Shown here: positions 3,538-63,276 of the stretch, piece by piece
Position numbering within the stretch: the first letter of the stretch is position 1
Layout: each line of letters starts with the position of its first letter
NCBI GenBank assembly: GCA_001794055.1
Contig: MGJB01000001.1
Coordinates: 7,457 to 71,456, forward strand
Length of the DNA: 64,000 nucleotides
Origin: Candidatus Yanofskybacteria bacterium RIFCSPHIGHO2_01_FULL_41_26
GTDB lineage: Bacteria > Patescibacteriota > Minisyncoccia > 2-02-FULL-40-12 > GWA2-44-9
Direction: 5' to 3'
The notes under the pieces: model-generated
What the model saw: the letters and a program-made list of their open reading frames with translations, nothing else
The model's database searches: none
Told to the model about the DNA's origin: nothing
Translations under genes and position numbers: made by a program

Positions 3538-4614
3538 GTGAACAGGAAACTTCTCTCAATAATTTTGATATTAGTCGTTTTTGGCCTTGTTGTTTTATCT
3601 TCGGCGGGAATCGTGGATGGTCAGAAGAAATTCGGTTCCTCTTATTATTATCTTACGCACCAGTTATTGTACGGAGTAATACCCGGTTTTATCGGAATGT
3701 TTGTCTTTTCTCTGATAAATTACAAGTTTTGGAAAAAGACATCATTATTTGTTTTAATCGGTTCGTTGGCGTTGATGATAATGATATTTATGCCTAATTT
3801 TGGTCATGGTCTCAAGGGTGCGACTCGGTGGATAAATCTGGGTGTTTTCTCTTTCCAGCCAGCTGAAATACTAAAACTCTCCTTGATAATATATTTGGCG
3901 GCATGGTTTGGAAACAGGGATGAAAGGACAAAGAGATGGTCTTATGGCGTGTTGCCATTTTTGATAGTTCTGTCTTTCGTGGCTTTGCTTTTATTTCTTC
4001 AACCGGATATCGGCACACTGATAGTGGTCTCGCTTATTTCTTTAGGAGTTTATTTTTTAGCTGGTCCAAGCTATAAACAGTTTGCGGGAATTTTGTTGGT
4101 CTTATTTCTGGGCTTATCGGCGATAATCGTTGTTGAACCTTACCGTTTTGATCGTTTAAAAGCTTTTTGGGATCCGTCTGTTGATCCGAGGGGAATTTCA
4201 TATCAAATAAATCAATCTTTAATATCAATCGGTTCAGGAGGATTGTTTGGCGTTGGTTATAATAACAGTTCCCAAAAGCAAGGAGGATTTTTACCGGAAG
4301 TGATAGGAGACTCGATTTTTGCTATTATTGCTGAAGAATTGGGATTGGTGGGCTCGGCGCTTACGGTTGGATTATTTGGAACCCTGTGTTTTTTTCTGGT
4401 TGGTATAGCCAAAAATGCGTCTGATAAGTTCGGAACTCTTCTTGTCATGGGGATTAATATTTGGATTATGTCACAAGCATTTGTAAATATAGCCGCCATA
4501 TCGGGACTTGTTCCTTTAACAGGTATTCCTCTGCCGTTTATCAGTTATGGTGGCACCGCTCTTGTGGTTCTGTTGTTGGGGATGGGAATTGTGTTTAATG
4601 TTGCTAAAGATTAA
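3538..4614 (+). CDS. ftsW: SEDS-family peptidoglycan glycosyltransferase (FtsW/RodA)
   Basis: 10-TM protein with the conserved C-terminal PLPFISYGG motif of FtsW/RodA. GTG start. Confidence 0.8.
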   Translation: MNRKLLSIILILVVFGLVVLSSAGIVDGQKKFGSSYYYLTHQLLYGVIPGFIGMFVFSLINYKFWKKTSLFVLIGSLALMIMIFMPNFGHGLKGATRWINLGVFSFQPAEILKLSLIIYLAAWFGNRDERTKRWSYGVLPFLIVLSFVALLLFLQPDIGTLIVVSLISLGVYFLAGPSYKQFAGILLVLFLGLSAIIVVEPYRFDRLKAFWDPSVDPRGISYQINQSLISIGSGGLFGVGYNNSSQKQGGFLPEVIGDSIFAIIAEELGLVGSALTVGLFGTLCFFLVGIAKNASDKFGTLLVMGINIWIMSQAFVNIAAISGLVPLTGIPLPFISYGGTALVVLLLGMGIVFNVAKD

Positions 4615-4924: not shown

Positions 4925-5125
4925 ACCCTCACCCATTTCCGACCTATTGGATTGCGCCTCCGGTCTTCTTCGGACAAATGCTTAAGTTAATCTCAATTCA
5001 GTTAACAAATTTGGTTACCCCGTCGCAAGTTCCGACTCAAATTTGTTGAATGAACTGAATTATCAATCAATTTAAGCATTATGTTACCCTCGAAACCAAA
5101 CGGTCTGAAATGGGCTAGGTTTCGC
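4925..5125 (+). repeat. Repeat family D copy 1: ~200-nt structured element (long hairpin gcttaaNttaatctcaat...caaattt / aaatttgtt...attaatttaagc) closed by a copy-specific outer stem
   Basis: Aligns with copies at 29497-29770 and 42074-42280. The outer stem here is cccatttccgacc / ggtctgaaatggg. Confidence 0.7.
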
Positions 5126-5147
5126 TTAAATTATTTTAAGCAACCAG

Positions 5148-5312
5148 CCCGCATACCCTCAGGGAGAACTTGCGCAGGCATTTCGGCTTGCCCCCACACT
5201 CATGCATGAGTGTGGGGGCTTGGTTCTTTGAAATGCCGAGCATGGAGATGGCCGAGGCTCGCAGGAAGCCGAGGACTATCGGTCGAGTCGGGGGTATGTG
5301 GCTGGGAGGAGC
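5148..5312 (-). repeat. Repeat family B (MITE-like, 15-bp terminal inverted repeats cccagccacataccc / gggtatgtggctggg), minus orientation, with an internal 28-nt perfect palindrome insertion
   Basis: Reverse complement aligns with B copies at 15987-16123 and 62964-63099. The extra palindrome cccccacactcatgcatgagtgtggggg sits in the central loop. Confidence 0.7.
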
Positions 5313-5329: not shown

Positions 5330-5593
5330 TTAGGCGGTTTTCTGTAGGAGATGGGTCGTGTTGGATTTGAGACGGGAAGCTTTATTTTTCTTAATGACAC
5401 CGGTTTTGGCAGCTTTATCTAATGTCTGATAAACTCTGGAAAGCATTTTTTTGGCTTCATCTTTTTTACCTGCCGCAACTAGTTTTCGAAAATCTTTAAC
5501 AGACGCTTTGTAAGCGACGGTTTTTCTGGTATTTCGGATCTTCCTTGTTTTGTTTTGGCGCAAAGCTTTCTTTGCTGATTTAGTAATAGGCAT
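5330..5593 (-). CDS. rpsT: 30S ribosomal protein S20
   Basis: 87-aa basic protein starting MPITKSAKKALRQNKTRK, typical of S20. Flanked by repeat B upstream-side and repeat A downstream-side. Confidence 0.9.
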   Translation of the reverse strand: MPITKSAKKALRQNKTRKIRNTRKTVAYKASVKDFRKLVAAGKKDEAKKMLSRVYQTLDKAAKTGVIKKNKASRLKSNTTHLLQKTA

Positions 5594-5823: not shown

Positions 5824-5862
5824 GCGGGAAATAATCCCGTTTTTTTGTTGTACAAATATAAA

Positions 5863-5965
5863 GAAATAAGTTCCAGGCCAAAGAAGAACGTTCGCAGGCG
5901 GGTAGCCGAGAGAGAGCAAAAACCCAGCAGGGTTTTATGCGGTCTTCGTGGTCTGGGACTTATTT
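5863..5965 (+). repeat. Repeat family A copy 1 (~100 nt). Conserved core aagaagaacgttcg...ccgagatagagcaaaaa[ccc]agcag[ggg]ttttatgcggtct, closed by copy-specific outer stem gaaataagttccaggcca / tggtctgggacttatttc
   Basis: Six copies in the window (5863, 15263, 19397, 50200 rev, 51114, 57057). The inner stem covaries: ccc/ggg, ttc/gaa, ctc/gag. Confidence 0.75.
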
Positions 5966-5967
5966 CT

Positions 5968-7968
5968 TTAGATAACTTCACCCTTTAATTTTCTAATCTG
6001 TTCCTTTAGTCCCAACGCTGTTTCGTAATCCATTTTTCGGATGGCTTTATCCATCAGTTTCTGAAGCTGTTTCATGGCATTCTGTCTTGAGCCGTTGGTG
6101 AAGAAGATTATCTCATTGTTACCTTCACCGTATTTTTGAATTTCTTTCTGGCTGATCGGCAAGTCAAAATTGCCTATTTCTTTAATGATTGTTTGCGGTG
6201 TTATGCCGTTTTCTTTGTTATATTTTTCTTGTTTTTTTCGACGTCTCAGAGTTTCTTTGATCGCAAAATCAATAGACTTGGTTATTTTATCAGCGTACAT
6301 AATTACGTGGCCGTTCTCATTACGGGCTGCGCGGCCCATGGTTTGGATAAGTGTGGTTGTGTTTCTCAAAAAACCTTCTTTATCAGCATCCAATATTGCT
6401 ATTAAAGAAACTTCAGGCAAATCCAATCCTTCTCTCAAAAGGTTTACGCCAACCAGAACATCGTAATTGCCGAGACGGAGGTCTTTTATTATTTTTAATC
6501 TGTCCAATGTTTTTATTTCGGAGTGAAGATAATTGACTTTAATTTCCTGTTCGGCTAAATGTTCAGACAGGTCTTCGGCCATTCGTTTGGTAAGAGTTGT
6601 GACGATTACTCTTTCATGGTTTTTAATTCTTGCTTTGATGTTTTCTACTAAATGAGGAATTTGTCCTTCTGTTGGCCTTATTTCTATTGTCGGGTCCAAA
6701 AGGCCGGTTGGCCTGATGAGTTGTTCGGCTATTCCGTCTTTGCCAGCTTGTTCCATTTCGTATTTGGCCGGTGTGGCTGAAGTGTATATGGTTTTCTGAA
6801 TTCTTTTCTGGAATTCCGGAAATTTTAGCGGACGATTATCTATGGCTGAAGGCAATCTGAAACCGTATTCAACCAAAGTAGATTTTCGTGAATGATCGCC
6901 GGTGAACATTGAACGAAGCTGGGGAACTGTGACGTGCGACTCATCAATTATTGTCAGAAATTCTCCTTTGGAAGAAAAGAAATCCAGAAGTGAATAGGGC
7001 GGCTCGCCGGTTTTTCTGAAATCAAGATGGCGGGAGTAGTTTTCTATTCCGTGGCAGTATCCTGTTTGACGCATCATTTCAATATCTTGCCTGGTTTTTT
7101 CTTGAAGCCGGACAGCTTCCTCAAACTTTTTTTCTTTTTTCAAGTGTTTAACATGTTTCTGGAGTTCGCTTTTTATGTTTTCTATGGCTAATCCAATTTT
7201 ATCGCCTGAGGTTATCCAGTATTTGGCAGGAAAGATGGTAGTTTCAACTATTTTTTCATATTTTAAATCTTTCATTTCCAATTCTTCGGGATCAGAAATG
7301 GTGGCCTGCATAATTTTTTCAATTCGGTCGTTTTTAAACTTTATTTTAATAACTTCTTGGGCGCTTGGAGCGACTACCTCAATTTCGTTGGTTGTTTTTC
7401 TGAAACAGCCTCTTTTTAATTCTATATCCGGAACATACTGGAGCCGCAAAAGTCCCCGCACCAATTCAGACGAATTCATTTTTTTATTCTCAAATATCTG
7501 GAGACCCAAGTTTTTATAATCATCCGGTGAGCCGAGGTTGTAGATGCACGAAACGGAAGCAACAATTATTACATCATCTCGGCTGATGAGAGCTTGAGTG
7601 GCGGCATGGCGCAAGCGGTCTATCTCTTGATTTATTTTGGAATCCTTCTCTATGTAAGTATCGGTATGGGGAATATACGCTTCCGGTTGATAATAATCAT
7701 AATAGCTGACGAAATAATGAACGGCGTTTTTGGGAAAAAATTCTTTGAATTCTTTATACAACTGAGCGGCGAGAGTTTTGTTGTGAGAAATGATTAAGGT
7801 CGGTTTTTTATAATGCTCGATAATCTTGGCCATCGTAAACGTTTTACCCGAGCCGGTGACACCCAAAAGCACCTGATGCTTTTTGCCGGTTTTTAAACCC
7901 TTAGCTAATTTTTCTATTGCTTCGGGCTGATCCCCGGTGGGCTCGAATTTAGATGAAAGTTTGAACAT
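5968..7968 (-). CDS. uvrB: Excinuclease ABC subunit B
   Basis: 666-aa protein with Walker A GVTGSGKTFT, helicase motifs and a C-terminal UvrB/C interaction region. Confidence 0.95.
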   Translation of the reverse strand: MFKLSSKFEPTGDQPEAIEKLAKGLKTGKKHQVLLGVTGSGKTFTMAKIIEHYKKPTLIISHNKTLAAQLYKEFKEFFPKNAVHYFVSYYDYYQPEAYIPHTDTYIEKDSKINQEIDRLRHAATQALISRDDVIIVASVSCIYNLGSPDDYKNLGLQIFENKKMNSSELVRGLLRLQYVPDIELKRGCFRKTTNEIEVVAPSAQEVIKIKFKNDRIEKIMQATISDPEELEMKDLKYEKIVETTIFPAKYWITSGDKIGLAIENIKSELQKHVKHLKKEKKFEEAVRLQEKTRQDIEMMRQTGYCHGIENYSRHLDFRKTGEPPYSLLDFFSSKGEFLTIIDESHVTVPQLRSMFTGDHSRKSTLVEYGFRLPSAIDNRPLKFPEFQKRIQKTIYTSATPAKYEMEQAGKDGIAEQLIRPTGLLDPTIEIRPTEGQIPHLVENIKARIKNHERVIVTTLTKRMAEDLSEHLAEQEIKVNYLHSEIKTLDRLKIIKDLRLGNYDVLVGVNLLREGLDLPEVSLIAILDADKEGFLRNTTTLIQTMGRAARNENGHVIMYADKITKSIDFAIKETLRRRKKQEKYNKENGITPQTIIKEIGNFDLPISQKEIQKYGEGNNEIIFFTNGSRQNAMKQLQKLMDKAIRKMDYETALGLKEQIRKLKGEVI

Positions 7969-12828: not shown

Positions 12829-13662
12829 ATGAAATTTAAAATAGACCTCTATATAAAAGAATTTATATTATTCGGCACGACGCTGCTGGTGGGTATTTTT
12901 TCAGCTTACCAGATTGTTAATTCAACTGCATCGACAGTAGTTCCAAAGATAAAATTTGGCTGGGAAGATGCTGTTTTTTTGGCGATTTTAGCGATATTTT
13001 TTATATTTTTTTCAAAATATCAAAAAGTGGCCAGTTTTTCTTTTAAACTATTTTTGGTTTTGATCGTTTTTTCCGGCACTAGTGTGGTCGCGGGTACGTT
13101 ATCAAGTTTGCCTTGGGATTTTTGGGTTACTATTTTTATCGTAGCCATTTTTGTTTTGATTAAGAATGTTCTCGTCCACAATGTCGGGATAATTTTGGCA
13201 ATAGCCGGTATCGGGTCTTTATTGGGCTTGGCTATTTCCCCCGGAACGGCAATTATAGTAATGGTGGCGTTGTCTTTTTACGATATTATCGCCGTCTATG
13301 TTACGAAACATATGGTAAGCATGGCTAAAAACATGATAGAATCGGGCGCGATTTTCGGATTTATAATTCCTTCACAAATGAACGGATTTTTCTTTCACAA
13401 GCGGGAAGCTCAAAATCAAGTCGCAGCCGGAGGTCAGTTTATGATTCTAGGTTCGGGCGATATCGGTTTGCCTGTTGTTCTAGCAAGTTCAGTGGCCGGA
13501 TATTCCCTTGACAGTGCGATAATCGTGGCGGTATTTTCTTTAGCCGGATTGTTTATTACCCATCTTATTTTTGTGAATCAAAAAGAGAGAAAAGCGATGG
13601 CGGCATTACCTCCGATTGCGACGATGGCTATAATTGGGTATTTAGTAGCGATATTTTTATGA
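12829..13662 (+). CDS. GxGD-type intramembrane aspartyl protease (presenilin/SPP-like or prepilin-peptidase-like)
   Basis: Polytopic protein with FYD in one TM helix, LGSGDIGLP (GxGD) in the next, and an ALPP (PAL-like) motif near the C-terminus. Confidence 0.5.
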   Translation: MKFKIDLYIKEFILFGTTLLVGIFSAYQIVNSTASTVVPKIKFGWEDAVFLAILAIFFIFFSKYQKVASFSFKLFLVLIVFSGTSVVAGTLSSLPWDFWVTIFIVAIFVLIKNVLVHNVGIILAIAGIGSLLGLAISPGTAIIVMVALSFYDIIAVYVTKHMVSMAKNMIESGAIFGFIIPSQMNGFFFHKREAQNQVAAGGQFMILGSGDIGLPVVLASSVAGYSLDSAIIVAVFSLAGLFITHLIFVNQKERKAMAALPPIATMAIIGYLVAIFL

Positions 13663-15029
13663 AAATAACTTTCTACGGAGGAGCAAAAACAGTTACAGGA
13701 GCAAATTATTTGCTTGATGCGGGGGACGTTAAAATTTTAGTGGATTGCGGTTTGAATCAAGGCTCCAAATATTCGGAAGACATGAATTATGAAAAATTTG
13801 CCTACAATCCGGCACAAATAAAATTTGTATTCATAACTCATAGCCATACCGATCACATCGGCCGTCTTCCAAAATTGTTCAGGGAGGGTTTTACTGGAAA
13901 AGTTTATGCTTCCAAACCGACTTTAGATATGATCAGGAAGGCTTTGCCTGATAACTTAAAAATAATAACCGAAGAAGCCAAGAGAGAGGGCAGGGAACCC
14001 TTATTTGAATTAAAAGATTTGGACGGAGTCATGGAGTTAGCTGAAGGTTTTAATTATGAAGTTCCAATAGATCTCGATGGTGGAATGAAGGCCATTCTGC
14101 ATGACGCAGGCCACATATTGGGTTCGTCAATTGTAGAAATACAATTTCCGAGCCTAATTCAAAATTCAGGGAAGATTTATTTCACCGGGGACCTTGGCAA
14201 TCCACCGACTCCTTTGCTTCAGCCGCCATTTTTTCCCAAAGATGCCGATTACATAGTGGTAGAATCAGCTTACGGTTCAAGAATTCACGAAGATCGCGCG
14301 TCCAGAAAAATAATGCTGGAGAATGTCATTAAAGAAACCATGGTTAAAGGGGGAACCCTGATGATGCCTTCATTTGCCATGGAAAGAACGCAGGAACTTT
14401 TATACGAACTGAATCAGCTTATAAATCATAACCAGATACCTCGCGTTCCAATCTATGTCGATTCGCCTTTAGCCACCCACCTTACCGAGGTTTACCGGAA
14501 GTATCCGAACTATTTCAATAAAACCGCCCACCATGTCATTGAATCGGGCGATGACATATTTAATTTCCCGGGCCTGACGTTCACTCGCACAGTTGATGAA
14601 TCAAAAGCCATCAATAACGTGAAGGGGCCCAAAATAATAATTGCCGGTTCGGGAATGTCCATGGGGGGAAGAATTTTACATCACGAAATGAGATATTTGC
14701 CCGATCCCAATTCGGCTATTTTGTTTGTGGGCTATCAGGTTATGGGTTCATTGGGGCGCCGAATCTTGGACGGCGAAAAAGAAGTCAAAATATTTGGCGA
14801 GAAAATTGCCGTGAATTGCCAGATACGGGCAATCGGCGGTTATTCAGCCCATGCCGACCAGGCCATGCTACTTAAATGGATAGAAAGCGCCGGATCAGAC
14901 GGTAAACTCAAAAAAGTTTTTGTGGTTCAAGGAGAAGAGGATTCATCTATAATTTTGGCCGAAAAGGTCAAAACAGATTTGAATATTGACGCCGTTGTAC
15001 CCTCGCAAGGGGAGAGTTTTGAATTGTAG
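13659..15029 (+). CDS. MBL-fold beta-CASP family hydrolase (RNase J / CPSF-like RNA-metabolising nuclease)
   Basis: HSHTDHIGRLP metallo-beta-lactamase motif, beta-CASP region, and a C-terminal His motif. Confidence 0.75.
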   Translation: MKITFYGGAKTVTGANYLLDAGDVKILVDCGLNQGSKYSEDMNYEKFAYNPAQIKFVFITHSHTDHIGRLPKLFREGFTGKVYASKPTLDMIRKALPDNLKIITEEAKREGREPLFELKDLDGVMELAEGFNYEVPIDLDGGMKAILHDAGHILGSSIVEIQFPSLIQNSGKIYFTGDLGNPPTPLLQPPFFPKDADYIVVESAYGSRIHEDRASRKIMLENVIKETMVKGGTLMMPSFAMERTQELLYELNQLINHNQIPRVPIYVDSPLATHLTEVYRKYPNYFNKTAHHVIESGDDIFNFPGLTFTRTVDESKAINNVKGPKIIIAGSGMSMGGRILHHEMRYLPDPNSAILFVGYQVMGSLGRRILDGEKEVKIFGEKIAVNCQIRAIGGYSAHADQAMLLKWIESAGSDGKLKKVFVVQGEEDSSIILAEKVKTDLNIDAVVPSQGESFEL

Positions 15030-15064: not shown

Positions 15065-15247
15065 TCCCCAGCCACATACCCCCCGACTCGACCGATAGTC
15101 CTCAGTTTCAAAAGCTCAACCCTAACCCATTCTCGGGCACGGCATAAATTCTTGCTAGAATTTTGCCTCGTACTCGTTCCAGTCGAACTCCGTAAGTCCC
15201 TCTAATGGGTTAGGGTTTCGCTTTTTAGTTTTAAGTATGTGGCTGAG
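15065..15247 (+). repeat. Interrupted repeat B (5' end 15065-15102, 3' TIR remnant 15233-15247) with repeat C inserted between the halves
   Basis: ccccagccacataccccccgactcgaccgatagtcctc matches the B 5' end, and aagtatgtggctgag matches the B 3' TIR. The intervening 15110-15221 is the reverse complement of C (copy at 63121-63227). Confidence 0.6.
15110..15221 (-). repeat. Repeat family C (~110 nt, TIRs gaaaccctaacccatt / aatgggttagggtt), minus orientation, nested in a B copy
   Basis: Near-identical reverse complement of 63121-63227. Confidence 0.7.
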
Positions 15248-15262
15248 ACCTTAAATATCGTA

Positions 15263-15371
15263 AGCGAACGCCTTATTCCAAAGAAGAACGTTCGGAGGCT
15301 ACCCCGGGCCGAGATAGAGCAAAAACCCAGCAGGGTTTTATGCGGTCTGATTTGGGATGAGGCGTTCGCGA
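15263..15371 (+). repeat. Repeat family A copy 2, outer stem gcgaacgcc / ggcgttcgc
   Basis: Core identical to other A copies. Marks the left edge of the 15.05-19.5 kb island. Confidence 0.75.
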
Positions 15372-15390
15372 TTAAACAGCCATAAAAGAT

Positions 15391-15419
15391 AGGGTGATTT
15401 GACATTATTGTTTGATAAG
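15391..15419 (+). promoter_or_regulatory. Near-consensus sigma70 promoter TTGACA-17-TATAAT driving the G+C-rich ORF at 15509
   Basis: ttgacattattgtttgataagtgtataatgtaaatacg. The tataatgtaaat tail is shared with the promoter at 50947-50997 (minus). Confidence 0.6.
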
Positions 15420-15508
15420 TGTATAATGTAAATACGAGTTCAGGTTTTGTCTGGATACAGAAGCGCCAGACGAAACCCGTTAATAAAGCTTCTGAAGGAG
15501 AAAGACCA

Positions 15509-15907
15509 ATGGGGACATGGATTTTGATGGGACTCGTGGGGGTCCTCGGCGTGATTGTCGGCAGTTTGGTTCGGCGGTCAAACGCTGCCGAAATCAAACC
15601 GTTCGGGCTGGAAGCGTTCGAGGCCCACGGTCTTGGACGGGCATCCAGCGATGTCCTGAAGGCCGTCGTGGCGACCATCAGTTTTCTCGGCCATCCGTTC
15701 ACGGTGGTTGAGGAAGCTGCAGAGGCGAGGGTCTCTGCGGCAGCCAATTCGACAAGAACCTTCGCCCAGATTGAGGACAATCTGGACGAAATTCGAGATT
15801 TGGAGGCCAGGAACATCAGTCTCGAGGCTCGAGCAAGGCTTGCCGACGCTCGTGCGAGCGATCTGGCGGCTCTCGTCGCGCAGGTCAGCTCGGTCGTCGG
15901 TAGCTAG
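15509..15907 (+). CDS. G+C-rich hypothetical membrane-anchored coiled-coil protein (foreign-composition cassette P1)
   Basis: RBS gaaggagaaag, ATG, N-terminal TM (WILMGLVGVLGVIVG), and G/C-ending codon usage unlike neighbours. Terminator gaggggaagggggcaatggtgtcccacccctcTTTTTTT at 15925-15960. Confidence 0.5.
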   Translation: MGTWILMGLVGVLGVIVGSLVRRSNAAEIKPFGLEAFEAHGLGRASSDVLKAVVATISFLGHPFTVVEEAAEARVSAAANSTRTFAQIEDNLDEIRDLEARNISLEARARLADARASDLAALVAQVSSVVGS

Positions 15908-15986
15908 CCGGTGTCGTCGTGGAGGGGAAGGGGGCAATGGTGTCCCACCCCTCTTTTTTTGATTCTTAAAAGTCCGAGTCTCTCTT

Positions 15987-16123
15987 CCCCAGCCACATAC
16001 CCCCGACTCGACCGATAGTCCTCGGCTTCCTGCGAGCCTCGGCTGTCTTCATGCTCAGCCCCTCACCAAGCACCAAGCTTCGGGGCCTGCGCAAGTTCTC
16101 CCTGGGAGTATGTGGGCTTGGGA
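15987..16123 (+). repeat. Repeat family B, intact copy
   Basis: TIRs cccagccacataccc ... tatgtgggcttggg. Internal hairpin ggcctgcgcaag. Confidence 0.7.
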
Positions 16124-18650: not shown

Positions 18651-18804
18651 TAACATGTTAATTGAGAATGTAATCCTTTACAGATAGCAAAATTGGGTGC
18701 TTGATAGCACCCAATTTGAAACGGTCTCGTTGTACAACGTATTAGGCTTGCCGACTGCCGTTGTGCCGCTCCTTAACAGTCAGCACGCGTTCCAGGGTGT
18801 AGCG

Positions 18805-19314
18805 ATGGTTCCCATCAACGACTTCCAATTGTTTGCCGTCGGGACCAACGCACACGAATCCCAGCGCGCTTACGAGAAAATGCTTTCGGAGCGTGACCAG
18901 AGAGTGGCCATTGAAGCCAAGAGGGATATTCAGCATATTGAAGGCGTCGTAGCTCGTGCCAGCAGCGAGACGCTCCAGGCAGGGACGACGTACTATCTCT
19001 ATCTGGAAAACGTTCCGCATCTGTTCACGGCCGGTCCCGGCCTTTCAAGCAAGCTCATCGTGACCAGGCCGGGAGACAAGGTCAAGATCGGGTTCTACGC
19101 ATCAGACAAGGACGTGGTCCCGATGTCGGAGTTTGATAATTTGTCCCTCCCGCTTTCCAAAAGCGTTTTGCAGGGAAAAGTCGAATCTTCTGCGACCGAA
19201 CATCGATCTCAAGAAGAAGCGACAGAGGATGCCAAAACCGTTCTGGAGCGAATGAAGAACTTGACTCCCAAGGAACTTCAGGAGCTTGGCAAGAAAGTTC
19301 CGCCGAAAAAGTAA
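18805..19314 (+). CDS. G+C-rich hypothetical protein (foreign-composition segment), start uncertain (frame open from 18697)
   Basis: Sharp rise in G+C from ~18760. ORF with G/C-rich third positions. Hairpin terminator ccggcatttgccgg at ~19330. Confidence 0.4.
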   Translation: MVPINDFQLFAVGTNAHESQRAYEKMLSERDQRVAIEAKRDIQHIEGVVARASSETLQAGTTYYLYLENVPHLFTAGPGLSSKLIVTRPGDKVKIGFYASDKDVVPMSEFDNLSLPLSKSVLQGKVESSATEHRSQEEATEDAKTVLERMKNLTPKELQELGKKVPPKK

Positions 19315-19396
19315 TTCAAACTAAGCCCGGCATTTGCCGGCAACCCCGCATCTCGCTGGGCCTTTTATTTATTTAAAGTTTAAAAAATTGGAGAGC

Positions 19397-19492
19397 GAGG
19401 CCTTGTCTCAAAGAAGAACGTTCGGAGGCCGACGGGCCGAGATAGAACAAAAACTCAGCAGAGTTTTATGTGGTCTGATTTGGGATAAGGCC
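19397..19492 (+). repeat. Repeat family A copy 3 (variant core aaaactcagcagagtttt), outer stem ggccttgtctca / tgggataaggcc
   Basis: Same orientation as the copy at 15263. Together they bracket the 15.3-19.5 kb island. Confidence 0.7.
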
Positions 19493-19539
19493 GAGTGACA
19501 GGTTGTGTGAACCATTAAAATTAGTTATTATAAAAATAT

Positions 19540-20259
19540 ATGACCAATGAAAAAGGCAAAATGAATTTACCGGCTTCTAAGCTTCCACAAGTTGGGGAGC
19601 CAGAAAAAGGAGATTTCAGGGCTTCTCTTCATTGGAGGGTCTTGAGGATCATGTCGGAACTCATTGAGGGCTGGCAGTTTTTGGCTGATTTTAAAAAAAC
19701 AGTTACTTTTTTCGGTTCGGCTCGTTTTAAGGAAGGCAACAAATGGTATGAGGAAGCAAGAAAATTGGGAACCATGTTTGTAAAAGAGGGTTTTTCAGTT
19801 GTTACCGGTGGCGGTCCCGGGATTATGGAAGCAGGAAACAGGGGAGCAATTGAGGGCAACGGAGAATCTGTCGGGATCAATATTCAGTTGGCGACGGAAC
19901 AAAGAATCAATCCCTATGTAAGGAAAAGCACCGGCTTTCATTATTTTTTCGTTCGAAAATTAATGCTTTCCTATGCTGCCAGGGCCTATGTTTTTTTCCC
20001 GGGAGGACTTGGCACGCTTGATGAAGTTTTTGAAATTTTGACGTTGATTCAGACCAAAAAGATTTCAGATAAAATACCGGTTGTATTGGTTGGCAAAGAA
20101 TTTTGGAGCCCGATACACTCATGGCTTCATGAAGAAATTTTTGGTAAGATGCATGCCGTTGACAAAGAGGATTTGAATTTATATACAATTGTTGACACCG
20201 CTGAAGAGGCTTTTGAAATAGTGAAAAACGCCCCTCCGCGGGAAGAGTTCTACTATTGA
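19540..20259 (+). CDS. LOG-family (TIGR00730 / Rossmann-fold nucleotide-binding, lysine-decarboxylase-like) protein
   Basis: GGGPGIMEAGNRGA and PGGLGTLDE motifs typical of LOG/YvdD family. Confidence 0.8.
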   Translation: MTNEKGKMNLPASKLPQVGEPEKGDFRASLHWRVLRIMSELIEGWQFLADFKKTVTFFGSARFKEGNKWYEEARKLGTMFVKEGFSVVTGGGPGIMEAGNRGAIEGNGESVGINIQLATEQRINPYVRKSTGFHYFFVRKLMLSYAARAYVFFPGGLGTLDEVFEILTLIQTKKISDKIPVVLVGKEFWSPIHSWLHEEIFGKMHAVDKEDLNLYTIVDTAEEAFEIVKNAPPREEFYY

Positions 20260-25112: not shown

Positions 25113-25166
25113 AAGGCCTTTTGTTTAACATTTCAACGACTCATGTGTGTGAGCCGTTGATTATCC
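25113..25166 (+). repeat. Repeat family G copy 1 (ggccttttgt..atttcaacgaYtcaYRYRtgtgagccgttgatt)
   Basis: Second copy at 51009-51062. Contains hairpin caacg..tca / tgagccgttg. Confidence 0.55.
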
Positions 25167-25181: not shown

Positions 25182-25215
25182 GAGCCCCGCCTGACAAAGC
25201 GCGGGGCTTTCTGTT
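25182..25215. terminator. Bidirectional rho-independent terminator
   Basis: agccccgcctgacaaagcgcggggct flanked by T-runs on both strands. Terminates the minus-strand gene 25371-25982. Confidence 0.6.
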
Positions 25216-25370
25216 GTGTGGGGTACGACTCTATCAGAACTTCTTGACGGGTTGCTGTTTGGGACGGCAACCCGTCAAGGTGCGGGGATTATGCCGGCGA
25301 AGCTTCGCAAGTATCCACCGAAACCAGGACTTCTTTGTCTTCTTCGTGTTCATGTCTTCTCCTTGCACAT

Positions 25371-25982: not shown

Positions 25983-26094
25983 CTCTCACCCCCGAAATTT
26001 TCAAAGATTATAAATTATACCACACATTTAATGTATTTGCAATGATTGGTCATGGTTTAAAAACAAAGCGAAGCCCCATGCTAAATTTGTCACA

Positions 26095-27646: not shown

Positions 27647-27665
27647 AGCGGTCAAGGAGGCAACG

Positions 27666-49739: not shown

Positions 49740-50198
49740 ATGGATAATCAATATTTTAGTAAAGAAGGATTAGAAAAATTAAAAAAAGAACTGGAAGAAC
49801 GACTTAATGTTTTGCGTCCGGAAATAGCCCAGCGCATCAAAGAAGCCAAGGAATTGGGCGATCTGTCCGAAAACGCGGAATATGATTCGGCAAAAGAAGC
49901 TCAAGCGTTGAATGAAGGCAGAATGGAAGACATAAGAAACACTCTTGAAAATGCTGTAATTATAACCGGAAATAACACTAGCGGAACTATTGGTGTTGGC
50001 TCAAGTATTAAAGTAGAGTCTAACACCGGAGTTCGCTCTTTCGTAATTGTCGGCGCCGCTGAATCCGATCCGGCCAAAGGGTTTATTTCAAATGAATCTC
50101 CGTTAGGTCAGGCATTTCTAGGACACAAAAAAGGGGACAAAGTTGAAGCAAGAACCCCGAAAGGAATAGTTGAATATAAAATAGTCGAGGTGAATTAG
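49740..50198 (+). CDS. greA: Transcription elongation factor GreA
   Basis: Coiled-coil N-domain with the acidic tip motif LSENAEYD plus a C-terminal FKBP-like domain. Confidence 0.9.
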   Translation: MDNQYFSKEGLEKLKKELEERLNVLRPEIAQRIKEAKELGDLSENAEYDSAKEAQALNEGRMEDIRNTLENAVIITGNNTSGTIGVGSSIKVESNTGVRSFVIVGAAESDPAKGFISNESPLGQAFLGHKKGDKVEARTPKGIVEYKIVEVN

Positions 50199-50199
50199 T

Positions 50200-50303
50200 C
50201 GCGAACGCCTCATCCCAAATCAGACCGCATAAAACCCTGTTGGGTTTTTGCTCTCTCTCGACTACCCACCTGCGAACGTTCTTCTTTGGAATAAAGCGTT
50301 CGC
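50200..50303 (-). repeat. Repeat family A copy 4 (minus orientation), outer stem gcgaacgcctcatccca / tggaataaagcgttcgc
   Basis: Reverse complement of the A core. Inverted relative to the copy at 51114, bracketing cassette P2. Confidence 0.75.
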
Positions 50304-50373
50304 TATGATATAAATTAATAAGCATGAAAAATAGGCCCCGTTGCGGGGCCTTTTGGCGTCTCTTTTCGTTTGC

Positions 50374-50412: not shown

Positions 50413-50429
50413 GGTTCGTTGACGTTGGC

Positions 50430-50894
50430 CTAGAGGGTCAGGCCGGGGCCGTGGAACTCCATCATCAGCGGGAGGTCCCGTCGGACGATGTCCAGCTTCG
50501 CCTTGGCGTCGATGAAGTGCTCTTCGGCTGTGGTGACCTCGACCATGATGATCTCAATCATCGCTTTGATCATTGCTTTGGCCGCGTCGACTCCGAGGGT
50601 TTCGACCGCATCATGCGGTTCGACACCTTCGATGACCTCGAGCTTCTTCTTGAGGCCGTCGAGCGCCGCCTCGGCACTGGCGAGCTTGCTCTTGGCCTCG
50701 GCGAGCTCTTGCTCGTACCGTTCGTTGAGCGGGATGGCCCGCTCGTCGATGTTCAGGCCGATCAGGGCGCCGCCCTGACGGTGGAGGTGGCGGGTGTGGG
50801 AGCGCTTGTTGCTCCCCTCGCCGATCGTCACCGTGATCTGCTTGCCACCCTTGCTGTTCTCTCTGGTCGATGTGACCGTGTATTTCAGTGCCAT
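50430..50894 (-). CDS. G+C-rich hypothetical protein (cassette P2)
   Basis: Minus-strand RBS gaaggagacagccacATG. High-GC codon usage. The opposite-strand ORFs here are composition artefacts. Confidence 0.5.
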   Translation of the reverse strand: MALKYTVTSTRENSKGGKQITVTIGEGSNKRSHTRHLHRQGGALIGLNIDERAIPLNERYEQELAEAKSKLASAEAALDGLKKKLEVIEGVEPHDAVETLGVDAAKAMIKAMIEIIMVEVTTAEEHFIDAKAKLDIVRRDLPLMMEFHGPGLTL

Positions 50895-51008: not shown

Positions 51009-51062
51009 ATCGGCCTTTTGTGCCAATTTCAACGATTCACACCTGTGAGCCGTTGATTTTAT
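51009..51062 (+). repeat. Repeat family G copy 2
   Basis: aatcggccttttgtgccaatttcaacgattcacacctgtgagccgttgatttt. Confidence 0.55.
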
Positions 51063-51113
51063 TATTTAGTTTGAACATATATTTCCAATCACCATTTAAT
51101 ATCGACTCAACTA

Positions 51114-51236
51114 GCGGAGGGAGACACCTTTATCCCAAAGAAGAACGTTCGGAGGCTACCCCGGGCCGAGATAGAGCAAAAATTCAGTAGAATTTTATGC
51201 GGTCTTCGTGGGATGAAGGCGTCTCCCTCCGTATGC
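51114..51236 (+). repeat. Repeat family A copy 5 with 22-bp outer stem ggagggagacacctttatccca / tgggatgaaggcgtctccctcc
   Basis: Core variant aaaattcagtagaatttt. Precedes lysS. Confidence 0.75.
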
Positions 51237-51298
51237 GTGGAGGTTGTGTCAACTATTCAGAAAGTGGATTTTTTATTTATTTTTGCTATCATTTATCT

Positions 51299-56958: not shown

Positions 56959-57056
56959 AAAATTATGCTCAACCCTCCCCATTTTTGAGCATCGTGTTAT
57001 CTTCGGAGGTAAACGGTCTGCAAATGGAGAGGGGTTTCTCTGGCCTTTTTGTTGAA

Positions 57057-57160
57057 GCGACACCTTCATCCCAAAGAAGAACGTTCGGAGGCTACCCTGG
57101 GCCGAGATAGAGCAAAAATTCAGTAGAATTTTATGCGGTCTTCGTGGGATGAGGTGGCGC
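57057..57160 (+). repeat. Repeat family A copy 6, outer stem gcgacaccttcatccca / tgggatgaggtggcgc
   Basis: Core as in copy 5. Confidence 0.75.
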
Positions 57161-57190
57161 TGAAATTCTAGGTAAAGCAAAGTTTAATAA

Positions 57191-58942
57191 TTAAGGATTA
57201 ATTTTCCAGACGAAGATGGAATTGCCGATAACTTTAATTGGTTGATAGTTGGTAAGCCAGCCGTAATTTTTGTCAGTGGCGAGGGACTGTTGATAGAACG
57301 TTGCCGATACAGCGATATATCCGCCGGTCGGATTATCTGACATGAATTGGTCTTTAGTTTTGTATTTTTCGCTTGTCATCCAATAAAATTTATTACCCAA
57401 ATAATATGATTGATCAGCCCAGCCGAAATAATCAAGACTAATTTTTTTAATATCATTTCTATCAACCCAATCAGCCAGACGCTTTAAGTCTTGGCCCCAG
57501 TCAAGGTTTGAATCAACAACATATCTGTAACCGCCGGTTGGTCCGCCGGCTATTTGATTAAAATAAGTCAAGTAATAAGGAAAGATTATGATTGTTTCGG
57601 CCAATAACCAGGCACACAGAGTGCTTACGAAGACCAGATATACCCTCTTTGCCTTAACGCGTTCATAAAGAACGGATAGTTGACCCGCAACAAGAATGGC
57701 TGTACCACCATAGACTGGGATTAGATGTCTGATCCCAATATTTAAATTGGCGTTGATACTGATAATCCAATAAAAAAGCGCCCAGGAGAAGATGGCTGTT
57801 TCTGCGAAATGGATTCGCAGCCAGTTTTTCAGGCGCCGTTCTTTGGTGCGGGCATTTATAAAAAATGCGATTGTCGCGATGATAAAGAGTATTAAAAATG
57901 GAATTGGTTCTTTCAGGGCATAAATAACTGGAAAATATGATTTTACTGCTGTTTGATAAACGTTGCCCAAAAAGTAGGTTTGATTGCCGCCGACATTTCT
58001 TTGAAAAATCATCAACACCCCAAGACTGTATTGAGCAAATGGACGAAGTAAGGGTTTATCCGATGCCCATATAACAGGATCGGCAAAAAGCCGATTACCG
58101 TAAGAACCTAAAATAACAGCTGCATCCGCTTTTTGTTTTTCTCCGCTGTAATTTAAAAGATGCAATTGAAATATCGGACCGACAATGAATGCAAAACCAA
58201 CAATAATTATCAGAACTGCCTTCCAGGCCATGCTGATCATTCCCGATAATTTGTGCTGATTGGCGTATGCCCATATGACAGCCAGAAAGACGAGCAGGGG
58301 AATCAATAAGAATGCTGAAAACTTGGTTAGTTGACCGAGACCGAAAACAATCGCAGCCAACCAAAAGTTTTTGTTCCGCCAGCCGGCAGATTGATTTTCA
58401 AAATAGCGTTCAAAAAAATACAGTGTCGCTATAATGCCGGCGAGGAGAGCGATGTCAGTGGTAACTAGCCGGGAATGGGCAATAACGGTAGGAGTAAAAG
58501 AAAATAAGAATATCGCCAGAAGCGCAGCTTTGTCACCGAATAATTTTTTGGTCCAGACAAAAATTATCCATGCCGAAATAATAAAGAATAACAACATCGG
58601 CAGTTTGGCCGCGCGAACCAAAGTGATGGCATCGTTGCCTGTTTGGAAGATCAGGGCTCGGCCGAAATTCCATTGACCGTTCACGTCAGTTGGCCAGTTA
58701 GTGGGATATTTTTGAGAAAAGGCGCTTTGGTTTAGATTGAAAGGCAGCAAAGCCAATCCGGCCAGATCTTTAGCCAGTGGCGGGTGCTCCGGATTGAACT
58801 GATAGCTATGCTGGACGACATATGAATAACCGGCGCCGATGTGGGGAATTTCATCAACAACAGGCGAGTCATTCCAACCACTTGTAATTGCCAAGATGGT
58901 AGCCGAAGCAATTATTAGGAATGCTGTTAATTTGATTTTCAT
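57191..58942 (-). CDS. GT-C superfamily glycosyltransferase (PMT/ArnT, GT39/GT83-like)
   Basis: N-terminal DE motif loop (VVDEIPH) and HPPLAK motif typical of the PMT/ArnT family. ~12 TM helices. Confidence 0.65.
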   Translation of the reverse strand: MKIKLTAFLIIASATILAITSGWNDSPVVDEIPHIGAGYSYVVQHSYQFNPEHPPLAKDLAGLALLPFNLNQSAFSQKYPTNWPTDVNGQWNFGRALIFQTGNDAITLVRAAKLPMLLFFIISAWIIFVWTKKLFGDKAALLAIFLFSFTPTVIAHSRLVTTDIALLAGIIATLYFFERYFENQSAGWRNKNFWLAAIVFGLGQLTKFSAFLLIPLLVFLAVIWAYANQHKLSGMISMAWKAVLIIIVGFAFIVGPIFQLHLLNYSGEKQKADAAVILGSYGNRLFADPVIWASDKPLLRPFAQYSLGVLMIFQRNVGGNQTYFLGNVYQTAVKSYFPVIYALKEPIPFLILFIIATIAFFINARTKERRLKNWLRIHFAETAIFSWALFYWIISINANLNIGIRHLIPVYGGTAILVAGQLSVLYERVKAKRVYLVFVSTLCAWLLAETIIIFPYYLTYFNQIAGGPTGGYRYVVDSNLDWGQDLKRLADWVDRNDIKKISLDYFGWADQSYYLGNKFYWMTSEKYKTKDQFMSDNPTGGYIAVSATFYQQSLATDKNYGWLTNYQPIKVIGNSIFVWKINP

Positions 58943-63099: not shown

Positions 63100-63120
63100 C
63101 TCTTAATTAATTAAGCCAAA

Positions 63121-63227
63121 GCGAAACCCTAATCCGTTAGAGGGACTTACGGAGTTCGGCGGAACGAGTACGAGGCAAAATTCCAGTCAGGAATTTATGC
63201 CGTGCCCGAGAATGGGTTAGGGTTGAG
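63121..63227 (+). repeat. Repeat family C copy (plus orientation)
   Basis: TIRs gaaaccctaatccgtt / aatgggttagggttgag. Reverse complement of 15110-15221. Confidence 0.7.
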
Positions 63228-63276
63228 CGCAACTTGTGGAATATTAGTTTTTGTTTTTATGTTACAATAAATACAT

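Follow-up and report, generated by a model that had tools for sequence, protein, structure and literature searches.

A branched hairpin repeat interspersed in a Yanofskybacteria-type CPR genome and its tentative reading as a REPIN-like mobile element

REP and REPIN repeats are extragenic, lineage-specific and present in high copy number, and are reportedly mobilised by RAYT (TnpA-REP), a Y1 HUH transposase. A REPIN doublet is a hairpin of about 100 nt that encodes no enzyme, with conserved 25-mers as its arms and a variable spacer. ERIC, Correia (CREE), BOX, RUP and bcr1 repeats are interspersed long imperfect hairpins of about 100 to 150 nt with internal insertion variants. They have conserved terminal inverted repeats and several of them have target-site duplications (TA for Correia); they lie at intergenic and 3' UTR sites and are transcribed with neighbour genes. 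REP, ERIC and Correia repeats have also been described as mRNA 3'-end elements, acting as terminator, stabiliser or RNase III site. The attC sites are recognised as folded single strands, with structure kept over sequence and a terminal structure that is variable and may branch. Other elements target hairpins: IS1397 and ISKpn1 go into the loops of REPs, the IS1111/IS110 family into REPs, and class C group II introns insert just after terminators. Genomes of CPR/Patescibacteria are regarded as streamlined and small, and a search of the literature for CPR repeats, MITEs and RNA motifs produced no relevant description, and none of interspersed repeats in CPR.

Family A is a unit of about 110 bases found in 8 copies in a 64-kb stretch of a Yanofskybacteria (CPR) genome from groundwater, called the window here, and at more than 100 related loci. 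We tentatively see in it an interspersed hairpin element of Yanofskybacteria-type CPR genomes whose unit is the complete hairpin of about 110 nt. Like the REP and REPIN repeats, it is extragenic, lineage-specific and frequent (8 copies in 64 kb), forms a hairpin of similar size to the REPIN doublet with no enzyme encoded in it, has no target-site duplication, keeps complementarity by paired changes and has one relevant strand. Unlike them, it conserves the tip, a three-way junction, and varies in the arms; its ends are without a GTAG-type 5' motif, no RAYT gene was found in the window or the loci, and no replication-strand bias was seen. It has the size, the insertion variants and the intergenic and 3' sites of the ERIC and Correia type, but its arms are variable, it has no duplication, and what is conserved is a branched core with covariation in the inner helices. 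As with attC, the element follows the preceding ORF immediately or overlaps its stop, and the strand that folds is antisense to that ORF. In attC sites the base, with its R''/R' and L''/L' boxes, is what is kept and the tip is variable, the reverse of family A; attC sites also stand in same-orientation arrays beside an integrase, whereas family A is scattered among housekeeping genes in both orientations. Nesting in the tip of another hairpin and a preference for sites downstream of a same-strand terminator are reminiscent of the hairpin-targeting elements, but those are autonomous, at least 1 kb long and encode a transposase or reverse transcriptase, and family A is non-coding and has no intron features. 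Orphan ncRNA motifs of the Breaker/Weinberg type are also about 100 nt long, with a multi-stem junction, conserved junction nucleotides, abundant covariation and many metagenome copies; family A differs from them by its much longer closing stem, its clear signs of mobility and its lack of a match in Rfam 15.

A first-pass annotation of the window had listed six copies, and a covariance model finds all of them again where they were placed (89 to 114 bits, E 1e-23 to 1e-31). The count itself was too low, since the model adds two divergent copies, which we call A-prime. A 35-nt core pattern matches the window 3 times against 0 expected from shuffles, and the folding of every copy beats that of its own shuffles (z −5.2 to −9.2). 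The copies are spaced 0.9-31 kb apart on both strands among housekeeping genes (Table 1). In the A-prime copy at 15109..15224 the core reads GGGACTTACGGAG-TTC..GAA-CGAGTACGAGG-CAAAATTCT-AGCA-AGAATTTATGCC-GTGCCC, and the other A-prime copy is joined to the 3' side of a high-GC 'X' hairpin at 62965-63117.

Table 1. Positions of the family A and A-prime copies in the window, with the parts of copy 1
Feature	Position	Strand	Score	Context
Family A copy 1 (flagged)	5861..5970	+	cmsearch 113.9 bits; MFE −52.5 kcal/mol, z −9.2	uvrB stop 5968-5970 (−) on one side, rpsT 5593..5330 (−) on the other; 'unique' 20-bp closing stem
Copy 1, P1 5' arm	5861..5880	+		Partner 5949-5968 (dot-bracket structure)
Copy 1, P2 5' strand GAAGA	5883..5887	+		Partner TCTTC 5943-5947
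Copy 1, P3 hairpin GGC-GGGTA-GCC	5897..5907	+		
Copy 1, P4 hairpin GCAAAAACCC-AGCA-GGGTTTTATGC	5916..5940	+		Covarying triplet and R:Y closing pair
Copy 1, P1 3' arm	5949..5968	+		Final bases overlap the complement of the uvrB stop codon
A-prime copy	15109..15224	−	52.4 bits, E 1e-12	Downstream of beta-CASP RNase gene 13659..15029
Family A copy 2	15262..15373	+	99.5 bits	Class II stem AGCGAACGCC...GGCGTTCGCGA
Family A copy 3	19392..19501 by model; 19392..19512 with flank remnant	+	89.3 bits	5' of LOG-family gene 19540..20259; followed by S-shell 3'-flank remnant CAGGTTGTGTGAAC, 19499-19512
Family A copy 4	50197..50305	−	99.9 bits	Class II stem; 3' end directly adjoins greA stop codon 50196-50198; same-strand terminator 50351-50333 on the 5' side
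Class I unit (S-shell + copy 5)	51059..51260	+		Upstream of lysS; 5' extension from 51059, outer hairpin GGAGGGAGAC.../...GTCTCCCTCC, 3' flank GAGGTTGTGTCAACTATTCAG
Family A copy 5	51118-51230	+	108 bits	Carried at the tip of the class I unit
Family A copy 6	57054..57165	+	106.6 bits	Class III-like stem; between high-GC cassette with terminator 56918-56947 and stop of GT-C/PMT-like gene 57191..58942 (−)
A-prime copy	63118..63233	+	42 bits, E 1e-9	Repeats I8/I9

A long closing stem, P1, leads to P2 and from there to a three-way junction that carries the hairpins P3 and P4; the bases ACGUUCGSAG, CGAGAKAGA and GG are conserved in the junction. P2, P3 with a short helix P3a, and P4 make up a conserved tip module of about 70 nt. 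In an alignment of 106 distinct copies from Yanofskybacteria-like groundwater genomes, 93% of the paired cells are complementary, while column shuffles reach 77% and slid partners 39-50%; double changes are seen in 33 of the 38 pairs, and the covariation score is 0.418 versus 0.151. Mutual information places proposed helix pairs at 16 of its 30 best pairs, and, apart from the helices and the P3-loop subtypes, a search by the same measure for pseudoknots or long-range pairs gave none. Swaps of GC/AU/GU and CG/UA in P3 and P4 can already be seen when MAFFT aligns the copies blind to structure. Across the family, P2 appears as GAAGA/UCUUC, AUCAGA/UCUGAU, GGCGAAC/GUUCGCC or GCCAC/GUGGC; the middle pair of P3 varies as GC/UA/CG, and P3 is variable in length, with a tip that accepts inserts of about 20 to 50 nt. 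The R:Y closing pair of P4 is G-C in 69 copies, G-U in 9, A-U in 10 and A-C in none. The compensatory P4 triplets reported in the first pass (ccc/ggg, ttc/gaa, ctc/gag) are correct. The core that it called conserved is present but not uniform, the P3 loop being GGGTA, CCGACGGG or CTACCCCGGG.

The hairpins are very stable on both strands, but the element strand is the more stable one in 91 of 94 copies, by a mean of 9 kcal/mol, and on it G-U outnumbers A-C by 190 to 53. Families A and A-prime have the junction bases in common while all their stems are different, and the extra helix P3a is supported by a U-A to A-U swap between the two subfamilies. It is thus strongly supported that the fold of one strand is constrained, with selection acting on a single-stranded fold. 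The annotation had proposed selection on an RNA fold; pairing, double changes and the strand-specific G-U excess bear out the fold, but this evidence fits folded ssDNA as well as RNA. Type of P3 loop, P4 triplet, junction base K, form of P2 and stem class all assort freely, so that the copies are mosaics. An invariant ATG might have been the start of a small peptide; we reject this because the frame after it runs into the variable stems.

Most closing stems are not locus-specific. Three classes of stem, I, II and III, have fixed ends and are found again at unrelated loci and in different genomes; therefore, the stem travels with the element. This disagrees with the earlier description of the outer stems as peculiar to each copy and perfectly complementary: copies 2 and 4 have the same stem, G-U pairs and bulges are present, and the outermost parts of copies 3 and 6 are unpaired. 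The arms of one copy pair with each other at −35.2 kcal/mol, against −19.8 for arms taken from different copies. Copies of classes II and III and the unique copies start and stop at the hairpin, without a conserved promoter or terminator. The outer stem of class I, the S-shell, is a hairpin repeat in its own right that occurs with or without the core, and 3 copies have a clean insertion of a 44-nt hairpin in the P3 loop (GGG^TA). Insertion into or nesting in hairpins, the other origin that had been suggested for the stems, is shown in these two cases, but most stems travel with the element; copy 1, including the whole of its seemingly unique stem, is missing from the same spacer in close relatives.

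Target-site duplications of the MITE kind, which had been named as an observation that would speak against a selected fold, were searched for and none was found. Direct repeats spanning the boundaries are no longer than in a shuffled-partner control, the sole excess being a class-specific GAGCGA motif that flanks class III copies on both sides. A MITE is not supported, given that there is no duplication of fixed length and specific to the locus, that the arms pair inside a copy and differ between copies, and that the conserved part is internal, with no conserved terminal inverted repeats. The search for an autonomous relative sharing the ends turned up no transposase domain in the ORFs of the window and no enriched neighbour gene in the loci.

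Comparison of close relatives shows gain and loss of copies, and their replacement by other hairpin repeats, at one and the same intergenic position. In the uvrB-rpsT spacer the window has family A, eight relatives (L131 and L133-L139) have the S-shell and L132 has no hairpin; the relatives without copy 1 have a UvrB that is 89-94% identical to that of the window. The site 3' of greA carries class II in the window, class I in L082 and A-prime in L044, and the site 3' of the beta-CASP gene carries A-prime and class II in the window, class II in L002 and a coreless S-shell in L064. At the position of copy 3, L064 has a full class I copy. Some hairpin repeat, whether family A, A-prime or S-shell, fills the same 3' spot in most relatives, and L009 and the window differ in how the element is oriented to lysS. 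No filled and empty sites with exact junctions were found at the strain level. None of nine strain variants of the greA locus is rearranged where the contigs extend far enough, and copies 4 (L122-L129) and 5 (L122-L124 and L126), examined as possible invertons, all have the orientation of the window in this small sample.

Apparent orthologous pairs allow the core to be compared with its flanks. Core identity is 0.92 against 0.62-0.76 for the flanks in L015/L061 and 0.86 against 0.66-0.82 in L072/L099; with L033/L075 these are the only usable pairs, because the identity cut-off of 0.6 is at noise level in AT-rich DNA. In these few pairs the better preservation of the core suggests function or gene conversion, and not neutral decay.

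By a crude ORF call, 62 of 67 loci are intergenic, with no ORF across the element. With the element taken as plus, the strands of the flanking genes are (−,−) in 23 loci, (+,+) in 19, (+,−) in 16 and (−,+) in 3, and divergent promoter regions are avoided. A same-strand terminator lies within 150 nt 5' of the element in 31 of 80 loci, compared with 10-14 in three controls, and in 18 loci an opposite-strand stop is found no more than 12 nt from the 3' end, compared with 5 for the mirror arrangement (p = 0.01). Copies thus tend to sit in a 3' intergenic pocket, after a same-strand terminator and with the 3' end against the stop of an opposite-strand gene. Orientation has no bias with respect to local GC skew (33 vs 44), which was used as a proxy for the direction of replication but in short loci mostly follows the gene strand. 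The element does not fit an intrinsic terminator: T-runs are missing from most 3' flanks and, on the complement, from most 5' flanks, and separate terminators are nearby. In the window, a high-GC cassette is found immediately 5' of 4 family A copies and 1 A-prime copy, on the same strand as the copy, and these high-GC ORFs, one of them at 50430..50894 (−), have strong promoters of their own. Over the loci this is a weak trend, with a high-GC segment 5' of the element in 13 of 59 and 3' of it in 5 (p about 0.1). Cassettes at one site diverge, hgc154 beside greA being 41% identical where the adjacent GreA is 93%, and between two conserved genes the window is about 3.6 kb longer than L064.

The distribution is very narrow. 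An exact 20-mer scan of 185,579 species genomes finds family A in 9 stretches of four MAGs, two further matching stretches being chance, and the UvrB of the window is 100% identical to that of a Yanofskybacteria MAG. Viral contigs scanned with the family A and A-prime patterns gave 0 matches, and the class I unit has no blastn match among plasmids or phages. The annotation had called the element a structure of unknown class and proposed an Rfam search, and this bears it out: the whole window has 0 matches to Rfam 15 at gathering thresholds, and E-value scans (E ≤ 10) of 50150-51350 and 56400-57250 with 4227 Rfam 15 models put none on the element, giving only chance-level matches of at most 21 bits (E ≥ 0.12). 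These families include hammerhead, twister, twister-sister, pistol, hatchet, HDV-like, HEARO/omega RNA and Y RNA, as well as 5S, SRP, 6S and riboswitches. ARAGORN reports 0 tRNA or tmRNA genes in the window. Pfam finds no transposase, reverse transcriptase, integrase or Ro60 domain in about 50 window ORFs, no Y1 transposase domain or RAYT gene occurs in the window or the short loci, and clustering of ORFs over about 120 metagenome and genome loci returns housekeeping families only, with no protein family enriched beside the copies.

The reading that we lean towards, while putting it at somewhat below even chances, is that family A is a REPIN-like, non-autonomous mobile hairpin module with a single-stranded fold under selection. 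Its copying or movement would take place in trans and on a single strand of nucleic acid, with folded ssDNA seeming the most likely form and RNA a possible one, and a structure-specific enzyme, with its gene at another place in the genome, would recognise the three-way junction. Closing stems may be so diverse because ancient lineages have stayed paired through compensatory changes or repair templated by the hairpin, because copies have recombined, and because elements have nested into other hairpins. Location and orientation would reflect the choice of target together with selection against harmful insertions. Several results count against mobility: the missing transposase, reverse transcriptase or integrase domain and the lack of an enriched neighbour family; the absence of the GC-skew bias that replication-coupled ssDNA transposition would predict; the lack of a strain pair with exact junctions, and the greA variants without rearrangement; a conserved tip with varying arms, the opposite of REPINs; traits typical of functional RNA, namely tandem G-A pairs, a P3 that varies in length and conserved bases in the junction; and orthologous cores kept better than their flanks.

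Those last features are what a structured RNA family, or RNA domains, serving the host would have, with a three-way junction that binds a protein or small ligand or is catalytic, and we hold this to be possible if rather doubtful. It accounts for covariation in every helix, for strand-specific G-U tolerance, for the matching junction bases of A and A-prime despite different stems together with the P3a swap, for the inserts tolerated in P3 and for the well-kept orthologous cores, and a promoter-like site at 51036-51065(+) lies a short way upstream of copy 5. P1 would then serve as no more than a scaffold or a stem for RNase III processing and the copies would multiply by duplication and recombination, a proposal to which we give the same doubtful standing. 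Against a host RNA, copies of classes II and III and unique copies reach no further than the hairpin and bring no conserved promoter or terminator with them; the position is often right behind a same-strand terminator and, beside stop codons, mostly antisense to the gene, so the sense strand is often poorly placed for transcription; and the changing orientation to lysS, the presence or absence in close relatives and the very narrow distribution do not fit well either. If instead the hairpin acted in cis at mRNA 3' ends, as a terminator, a stabiliser against 3'-exonucleases or an RNase III site, it could work in either orientation, and its site adjoining stop codons, its stability on both strands and the recurrence of some hairpin repeat at the same 3' spot in most relatives would follow. 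Such a role is nevertheless quite improbable, for in most copies neither strand has a U-tract after the hairpin, a canonical terminator usually exists as a separate feature, there would be no role for the conservation of the junction or for pairing that is specific to one strand, the mRNA near stops mostly carries the less well paired strand, and the uvrB-rpsT spacer of L132 is entirely without a hairpin.

A more radical possibility, which we consider unlikely, is that the junction is the active part of a new small mobile nucleic acid, a catalytic or self-integrating RNA or ssDNA that invades hairpin tips and terminator-proximal DNA with no element-encoded protein, or else the recognition site of an undescribed CPR structure-specific recombination system that shuffles high-GC cassettes; this second variant, equally unlikely, would be integron-like but turn attC upside down, conserving the tip and varying the base. 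Taken more literally, family A would be an attC-like, structure-specific recombination site that ends mobile high-GC cassettes, solo copies being scars of lost cassettes. The placement of five window copies behind cassettes on the same strand, the variation of cassettes at one site and, as in attC, a conserved structure with variable stems and a single well-folding strand point that way, but we regard it as very unlikely: the 5' excess of high-GC segments over the loci is weak, there are no same-orientation arrays and no integrase in the window, the hairpin tip is conserved and not the base, and the ends read AGCGAACGCC/GGCGTTCGCGA, GGAGGGAGAC/GTCTCCCTCC or a unique sequence, with no R''/R' boxes (RYYYAAC/GTTRRRY). 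A riboswitch or other 5' leader controlling the downstream gene would suit an aptamer-like three-way junction with conserved bases, and in (+,+) loci the next ORF does begin about 50-160 nt downstream of the element. The context counts bring it close to refuted and leave it extremely improbable, with a co-directional downstream gene in just 19 of 67 loci; in addition, the downstream genes are mutually unrelated, the element does not keep one orientation to lysS from genome to genome, no riboswitch is known with a P1 like this one of 20-45 bp, and Rfam has no match.

The genome of the window has a structured repeat about every 8 kb and at least 3 further hairpin families, mutually nested and turning over between close relatives. 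If the junction is RNA, it would be a new structured RNA class with well over 100 sequences and heavy covariation, a ready candidate for tests of protein binding or self-cleavage. If it is a substrate of folded ssDNA, it would point to an undiscovered CPR mobilisation system that is REPIN-like, with the tip recognised rather than the arm. The repeats may also mark hotspots for the exchange of variable, strongly expressed small genes. Metagenome assemblies are broken by these repeats, many contigs ending inside them, and one locus, L092, is an apparent assembly chimera.

The six copies of family A, a hairpin repeat of ~110 nt, that the first-pass annotation had listed are all found in the window, scoring 89 to 114 bits with a covariance model made from 95 distinct copies. 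The family was recovered independently by repeat finding (families D1, D2 and D4; inverted pairs I2, I3 and I5), a 35-nt core pattern has 3 matches at ≤3 mismatches in the window against 0 in 100 shuffles, and the fold of every copy is much more stable than that of its dinucleotide shuffles (z from -5.2 to -9.2). Two copies of a divergent subfamily, A-prime, bring the members in the window to eight, about 1 per 8 kb. Copy 1 lies between uvrB and rpsT, antisense to both; rpsT is absent from the 100-aa ORF list.

Coordinates of family A and of other repeats and segments, as window positions or, where prefixed with L, as positions in comparison loci from related genomes
Feature	Position	Strand	Remark
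Family A copy 1	5861-5970	+	
Family A copy 2	15262-15373	+	
Family A copy 3	19392-19501	+	
Family A copy 4	50197-50305	-	
Family A copy 5	51118-51230	+	
Family A copy 6	57054-57165	+	
A-prime copy	15109-15224	-	covariance model, 52 bits
A-prime copy	63118-63233	+	covariance model, 42 bits
rpsT	5330-5593	-	87 aa
S-shell with core	51059-51260		
S-shell remnant	19499-19512		
Coreless S-shell (examples)	L064:1857-1912, L003:3546-3599, L131:3504-3660		
X repeat	62965-63117	+	fused to A-prime copy (62965-63233)
X repeat	15987-16122	+	
X repeat	5120-5306	-	
X repeat fragment	15067-15099		
High-GC cassettes	~15400-16100, 18700-19300, 25200-26000, 27600-28200, 50370-50950, 56560-56950, 62400-63000		
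Cassette with several open frames	56513-56950		13-bp terminator at end
Cassette promoter	50997-50968	-	region repeated at 62259-62308
M3	L090:1422-1578, L108:1327-1483, L071:2025-2165	-	similar piece in L133, ~3590-3640
D3/D6 repeat	4966-5110, 29589-29751, 42108-42261		three copies, ~150 nt
Palindrome pair beside high-GC cassettes	26489-26533 and 50373-50417; 25130-25162 and 51026-51058		

Read 5′ to 3′ on the element strand, the fold begins with P1, a long closing stem of 16-47 bp and variable sequence. The internal loop between P1 and P2 takes two forms whose sides co-vary, CCCA-AA-GAAGA / UCUUC-G-UGGG and CCAAA-GA-AGA / UCU-GA-UUUGG, tandem G-A pairs resulting in the second, and P2 (GAAGAAC / G(U)UCUUC) then leads into a three-way junction. 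One arm of the junction is made of P3a (GUUC with GAKA), an asymmetric loop GSA / GA, and P3 (GGC-loop-GCC); the other is P4, RCA-AAAA-NNN-AGCA-NNN-UUUU-A-UGY, and the closing bases are GG. The P3a bases are invariant within family A, and this helix would be backed, by inference, by a U-A pair that becomes A-U in A-prime. P3 differs in length among copies, and in three of them (L090, L108 and L071) the same 44-nt hairpin is cleanly inserted at the P3 loop, GGG^TA, with a compensatory change of its own in L071.

One strand of family A folds into a selected three-way junction on a long hairpin. In a model-based alignment fitted to the structure (110 hits, 106 distinct), standard pairs fill 93.0% of cells; shuffling the 3′ letters inside each column lowers this to 77.4%, and sliding the partners by 1-3 columns to 39-50%, the slid-partner control being the nearest phylogeny-preserving check used. 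Both-sided changes occur in 33 of the 38 pairs, and the covariation score is 0.418 against 0.151 shuffled and ≤0.092 with slid partners. A structure-blind MAFFT alignment gives the P4 pairs as CG 71 / UA 23, the closing pair as GC 75 / GU 10 / AU 10, and the middle pair of P3 as GC 85 / UA 5 / CG 2. A mutual-information scan of all column pairs, run on the model-fitted alignment and so blind to the annotated pairs, not to structure, has proposed pairs as 16 of its top 30, the others being adjacent columns of the P3-loop subtypes, and it gives no sign of a pseudoknot. As to which strand folds, comparison with the complement favours the element strand in 91 of 94 copies, with a mean difference in stability of 9 kcal/mol; paired cells hold 190 G-U against 53 A-C, and the R:Y pair closing P4 is G-C 69, G-U 9, A-U 10 and A-C 0. 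Mutational strand bias is an unlikely cause, because copies lie both ways relative to genes and to GC skew, the latter giving no orientation bias. It appears, then, that one particular strand is selected to fold, which holds equally for RNA and for single-stranded DNA.

The outer stems had been described as copy-specific, and many are indeed singletons, but others form classes with fixed ends that recur at unrelated loci in different genomes. Class I (GGCGGAGGGAGACGCC...GGCGTCTCCCTCCG) closes copy 5 and >40 loci, class II (AGCGAACGCC...GGCGTTCGCGA) closes copies 2 and 4 along with L002 and L066, and class III (GAGCGACACC...GGTG-GAGCGA), whose outer hexamer is a direct and not an inverted repeat, closes copy 6 and >15 loci. 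The P1 arms of one copy pair at a mean of -35.2 kcal/mol against -19.8 for arms from different copies, so the stem generally travels with the element; in an apparently orthologous pair (L015/L061), P1 has at least 2 double compensatory changes, C-G to U-A and A-U to G-C. GAGCGA or a variant stands just outside P1 on both sides, as a direct repeat, in class III copies such as L018, L020, L036, L043 and L121, with variants in L114 (CGGAGC) and L019 (CGAGC), and GAGCGA is present on both sides where a hairpin would need the complement. The flanking hexamer is too constant for an ordinary target-site duplication, and could serve in cleavage or recognition as a motif that one strand must carry at each end.

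The class I outer hairpin with ~100 nt of conserved flanks is an independent repeat, named S-shell, which also occurs without the family A core and then has an AT-rich tip of ~34 nt instead. Coreless S-shells are found at at least 7 loci, and also 3′ of a beta-CASP RNase gene (L064) and 3′ of uvrB in eight relatives. The S-shell being found with or without a core, together with the 44-nt insert in P3, means that hairpin modules nest in each other's tips. Insertion into pre-existing hairpins, which the first-pass annotation had offered as one origin of the stems, thus applies to these nested copies and is not general. The conserved S-shell flanks are GTTTGAAC..TATTGCCAAT..CAACC on the 5′ side and GAGGTTGTGTGA on the 3′ side, and at the same site 3′ of uvrB the S-shells of close relatives have stems that are quite different yet complementary.

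The family A unit is dispersed, recombining, and gained and lost over short time scales. In the uvrB-rpsT spacer the window has copy 1, relatives L131 and L133-L139 have an S-shell, and L132 has nothing, at UvrB identities of 89-94% to the window's. Just past copy 1 the window reads TATATTTGTACAAC, to which TAAGGCTATTTTTGTACC, the sequence that follows the stop in L132, can be aligned, so the entire copy 1 hairpin, its "unique" stem included, is extra in the window; in L136 what lies 3′ of the repeat is clearly orthologous to window sequence. Downstream of greA there is a class II copy right after the stop in the window, class I in L082 and A-prime in L044, and downstream of the beta-CASP gene there is A-prime plus class II in the window, class II in L002 and a coreless S-shell in L064. 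P3 loop type, P4 triplet, junction base K, P2 form and stem class assort freely among copies, which points to recombination or gene conversion between them. In contig L092 the 5′ half of a class III copy (the L018 locus) is fused through the shared core to the 3′ half of a class I copy (the L033 locus); either two copies underwent a deletion or recombination, or the contig is an assembly chimera. The ends of many contigs fall within family A copies. Strain variants of the greA-lysS region have no rearrangement where contigs reach far enough.

Family A settles in intergenic pockets on the 3′ side of genes, where one orientation is preferred. At 67 non-redundant loci, with the element taken as +, the flanking ORF strands are (-,-) 23, (+,+) 19, (+,-) 16 and (-,+) 3, 5 loci having a crude ORF call that overlaps the element and 1 further having no ORF on one side; copies avoid divergent promoter regions. 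At 18 loci the P1 3′ end comes within 12 nt of an opposite-strand ORF stop, against 5 for the mirror arrangement of the element 5′ end beside the stop of a same-strand ORF (p = 0.01), and at ≤60 nt the counts are 38 against 14. A same-strand terminator-like hairpin lies within 150 nt 5′ of the element at 31 of 80 loci, against 10-14 at three control positions; copy 4 has such a hairpin, as does copy 6 at a slightly greater distance 5′. Among the genes beside the copies, no protein family is enriched. The first-pass annotation had named MITE-like target-site duplications as what would speak against its RNA-like element, and the copy boundaries carry none; the window has no transposase, reverse transcriptase or integrase domains.

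When one genome for each of 185,579 species was scanned for an exact 20-mer, 11 stretches came up, 2 of them chance matches; the other 9 carry family A and belong to four MAGs, whose labels are Yanofskybacteria, Saccharibacteria, Patescibacteria group and, for one 1.6-kb contig, Gammaproteobacteria. A metagenome scan anchored on the 3′ half gave at least 110 stretches, and all those listed come from groundwater (Rifle, Hainich and the like). A Candidatus Yanofskybacteria MAG of the RIFCSPLOWO2_01_FULL_41 series encodes a UvrB with 100% identity to the window's, whose nearest relatives are other Yanofskybacteria. Nothing similar to family A was found in viral contigs, phage records or plasmid records, Rfam 15, a search suggested at first pass, has no matching family, ARAGORN finds nothing in the window, and the literature searched has no description of such repeats in CPR bacteria.

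The selected fold, the dispersal and turnover, and the 3′ pockets together lead us to infer, tentatively, a REPIN-like selfish element, whose copying or movement would take place in trans, in the form of a folded single strand, the three-way junction being the feature that a putative mobilising enzyme may recognise. The main rival is that family A is a host-functional RNA module, a reading favoured by its RNA-like hallmarks and by the better conservation of cores than of flanks in three usable orthologous pairs; we think this rather unlikely, since the unit has no promoter or terminator of its own, copies sit behind same-strand terminators and antisense beside stop codons, the orientation flips at lysS, and presence varies among close relatives. 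The selfish element and the functional RNA are compatible, because a mobile element can also act as RNA. A pure 3′-UTR hairpin and a riboswitch are rated lower, as is an attC-like cassette site; like attC, family A depends on structure more than on sequence and lies at stop codons, but the part conserved in the one is the variable part in the other. We consider a self-integrating nucleic acid, or an integron-like cassette system of inverted logic, quite improbable.

In its way of working family A comes closest to the REP/REPIN and the ERIC- or Correia-type hairpin repeats, although it differs from them in that the arms are not conserved and there is no GTAG motif, no target-site duplication and no RAYT seen. 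We file it among structured interspersed repeats. What makes it interesting is that its branched core is conserved, that several hairpin families nest in one another, and that it is present in a supposedly streamlined CPR genome.

Other repeats and segments were noted in the window and in the comparison loci. X, a high-GC hairpin repeat of ~150 nt (CCCCAGCCACATACCC...GGGTATGTGG.CTGGGG), follows high-GC ORFs. The high-GC cassettes stand at 55-66% G+C against ~40% for the genome, none of their ORFs matches Pfam, and their content at the same site differs between relatives; one is driven by a perfect TTGACA-18-TATAAT promoter, and another might be an RNA, since it has several open frames and a 13-bp terminator at its end. 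M3 is the name of the 44-nt module of the P3-loop insert, GCTCGGATAAGTTTCTAGCGTGCTTTAGCCGCTAAGAATCTCTG, and a related piece lies inside an S-shell. The AT-rich D3/D6 repeat lies between genes and bears no relation to family A. High-GC cassettes are flanked by two conserved palindromes, CCTGTGGATAACCGACTT..AAGTCGGTTATCCACAG and ATTTCAACG..GTGAGCCGTTGATT, and the motif GTGAGCCGTTG is also present 5′ of the family A copies in L041, L079 and L119.
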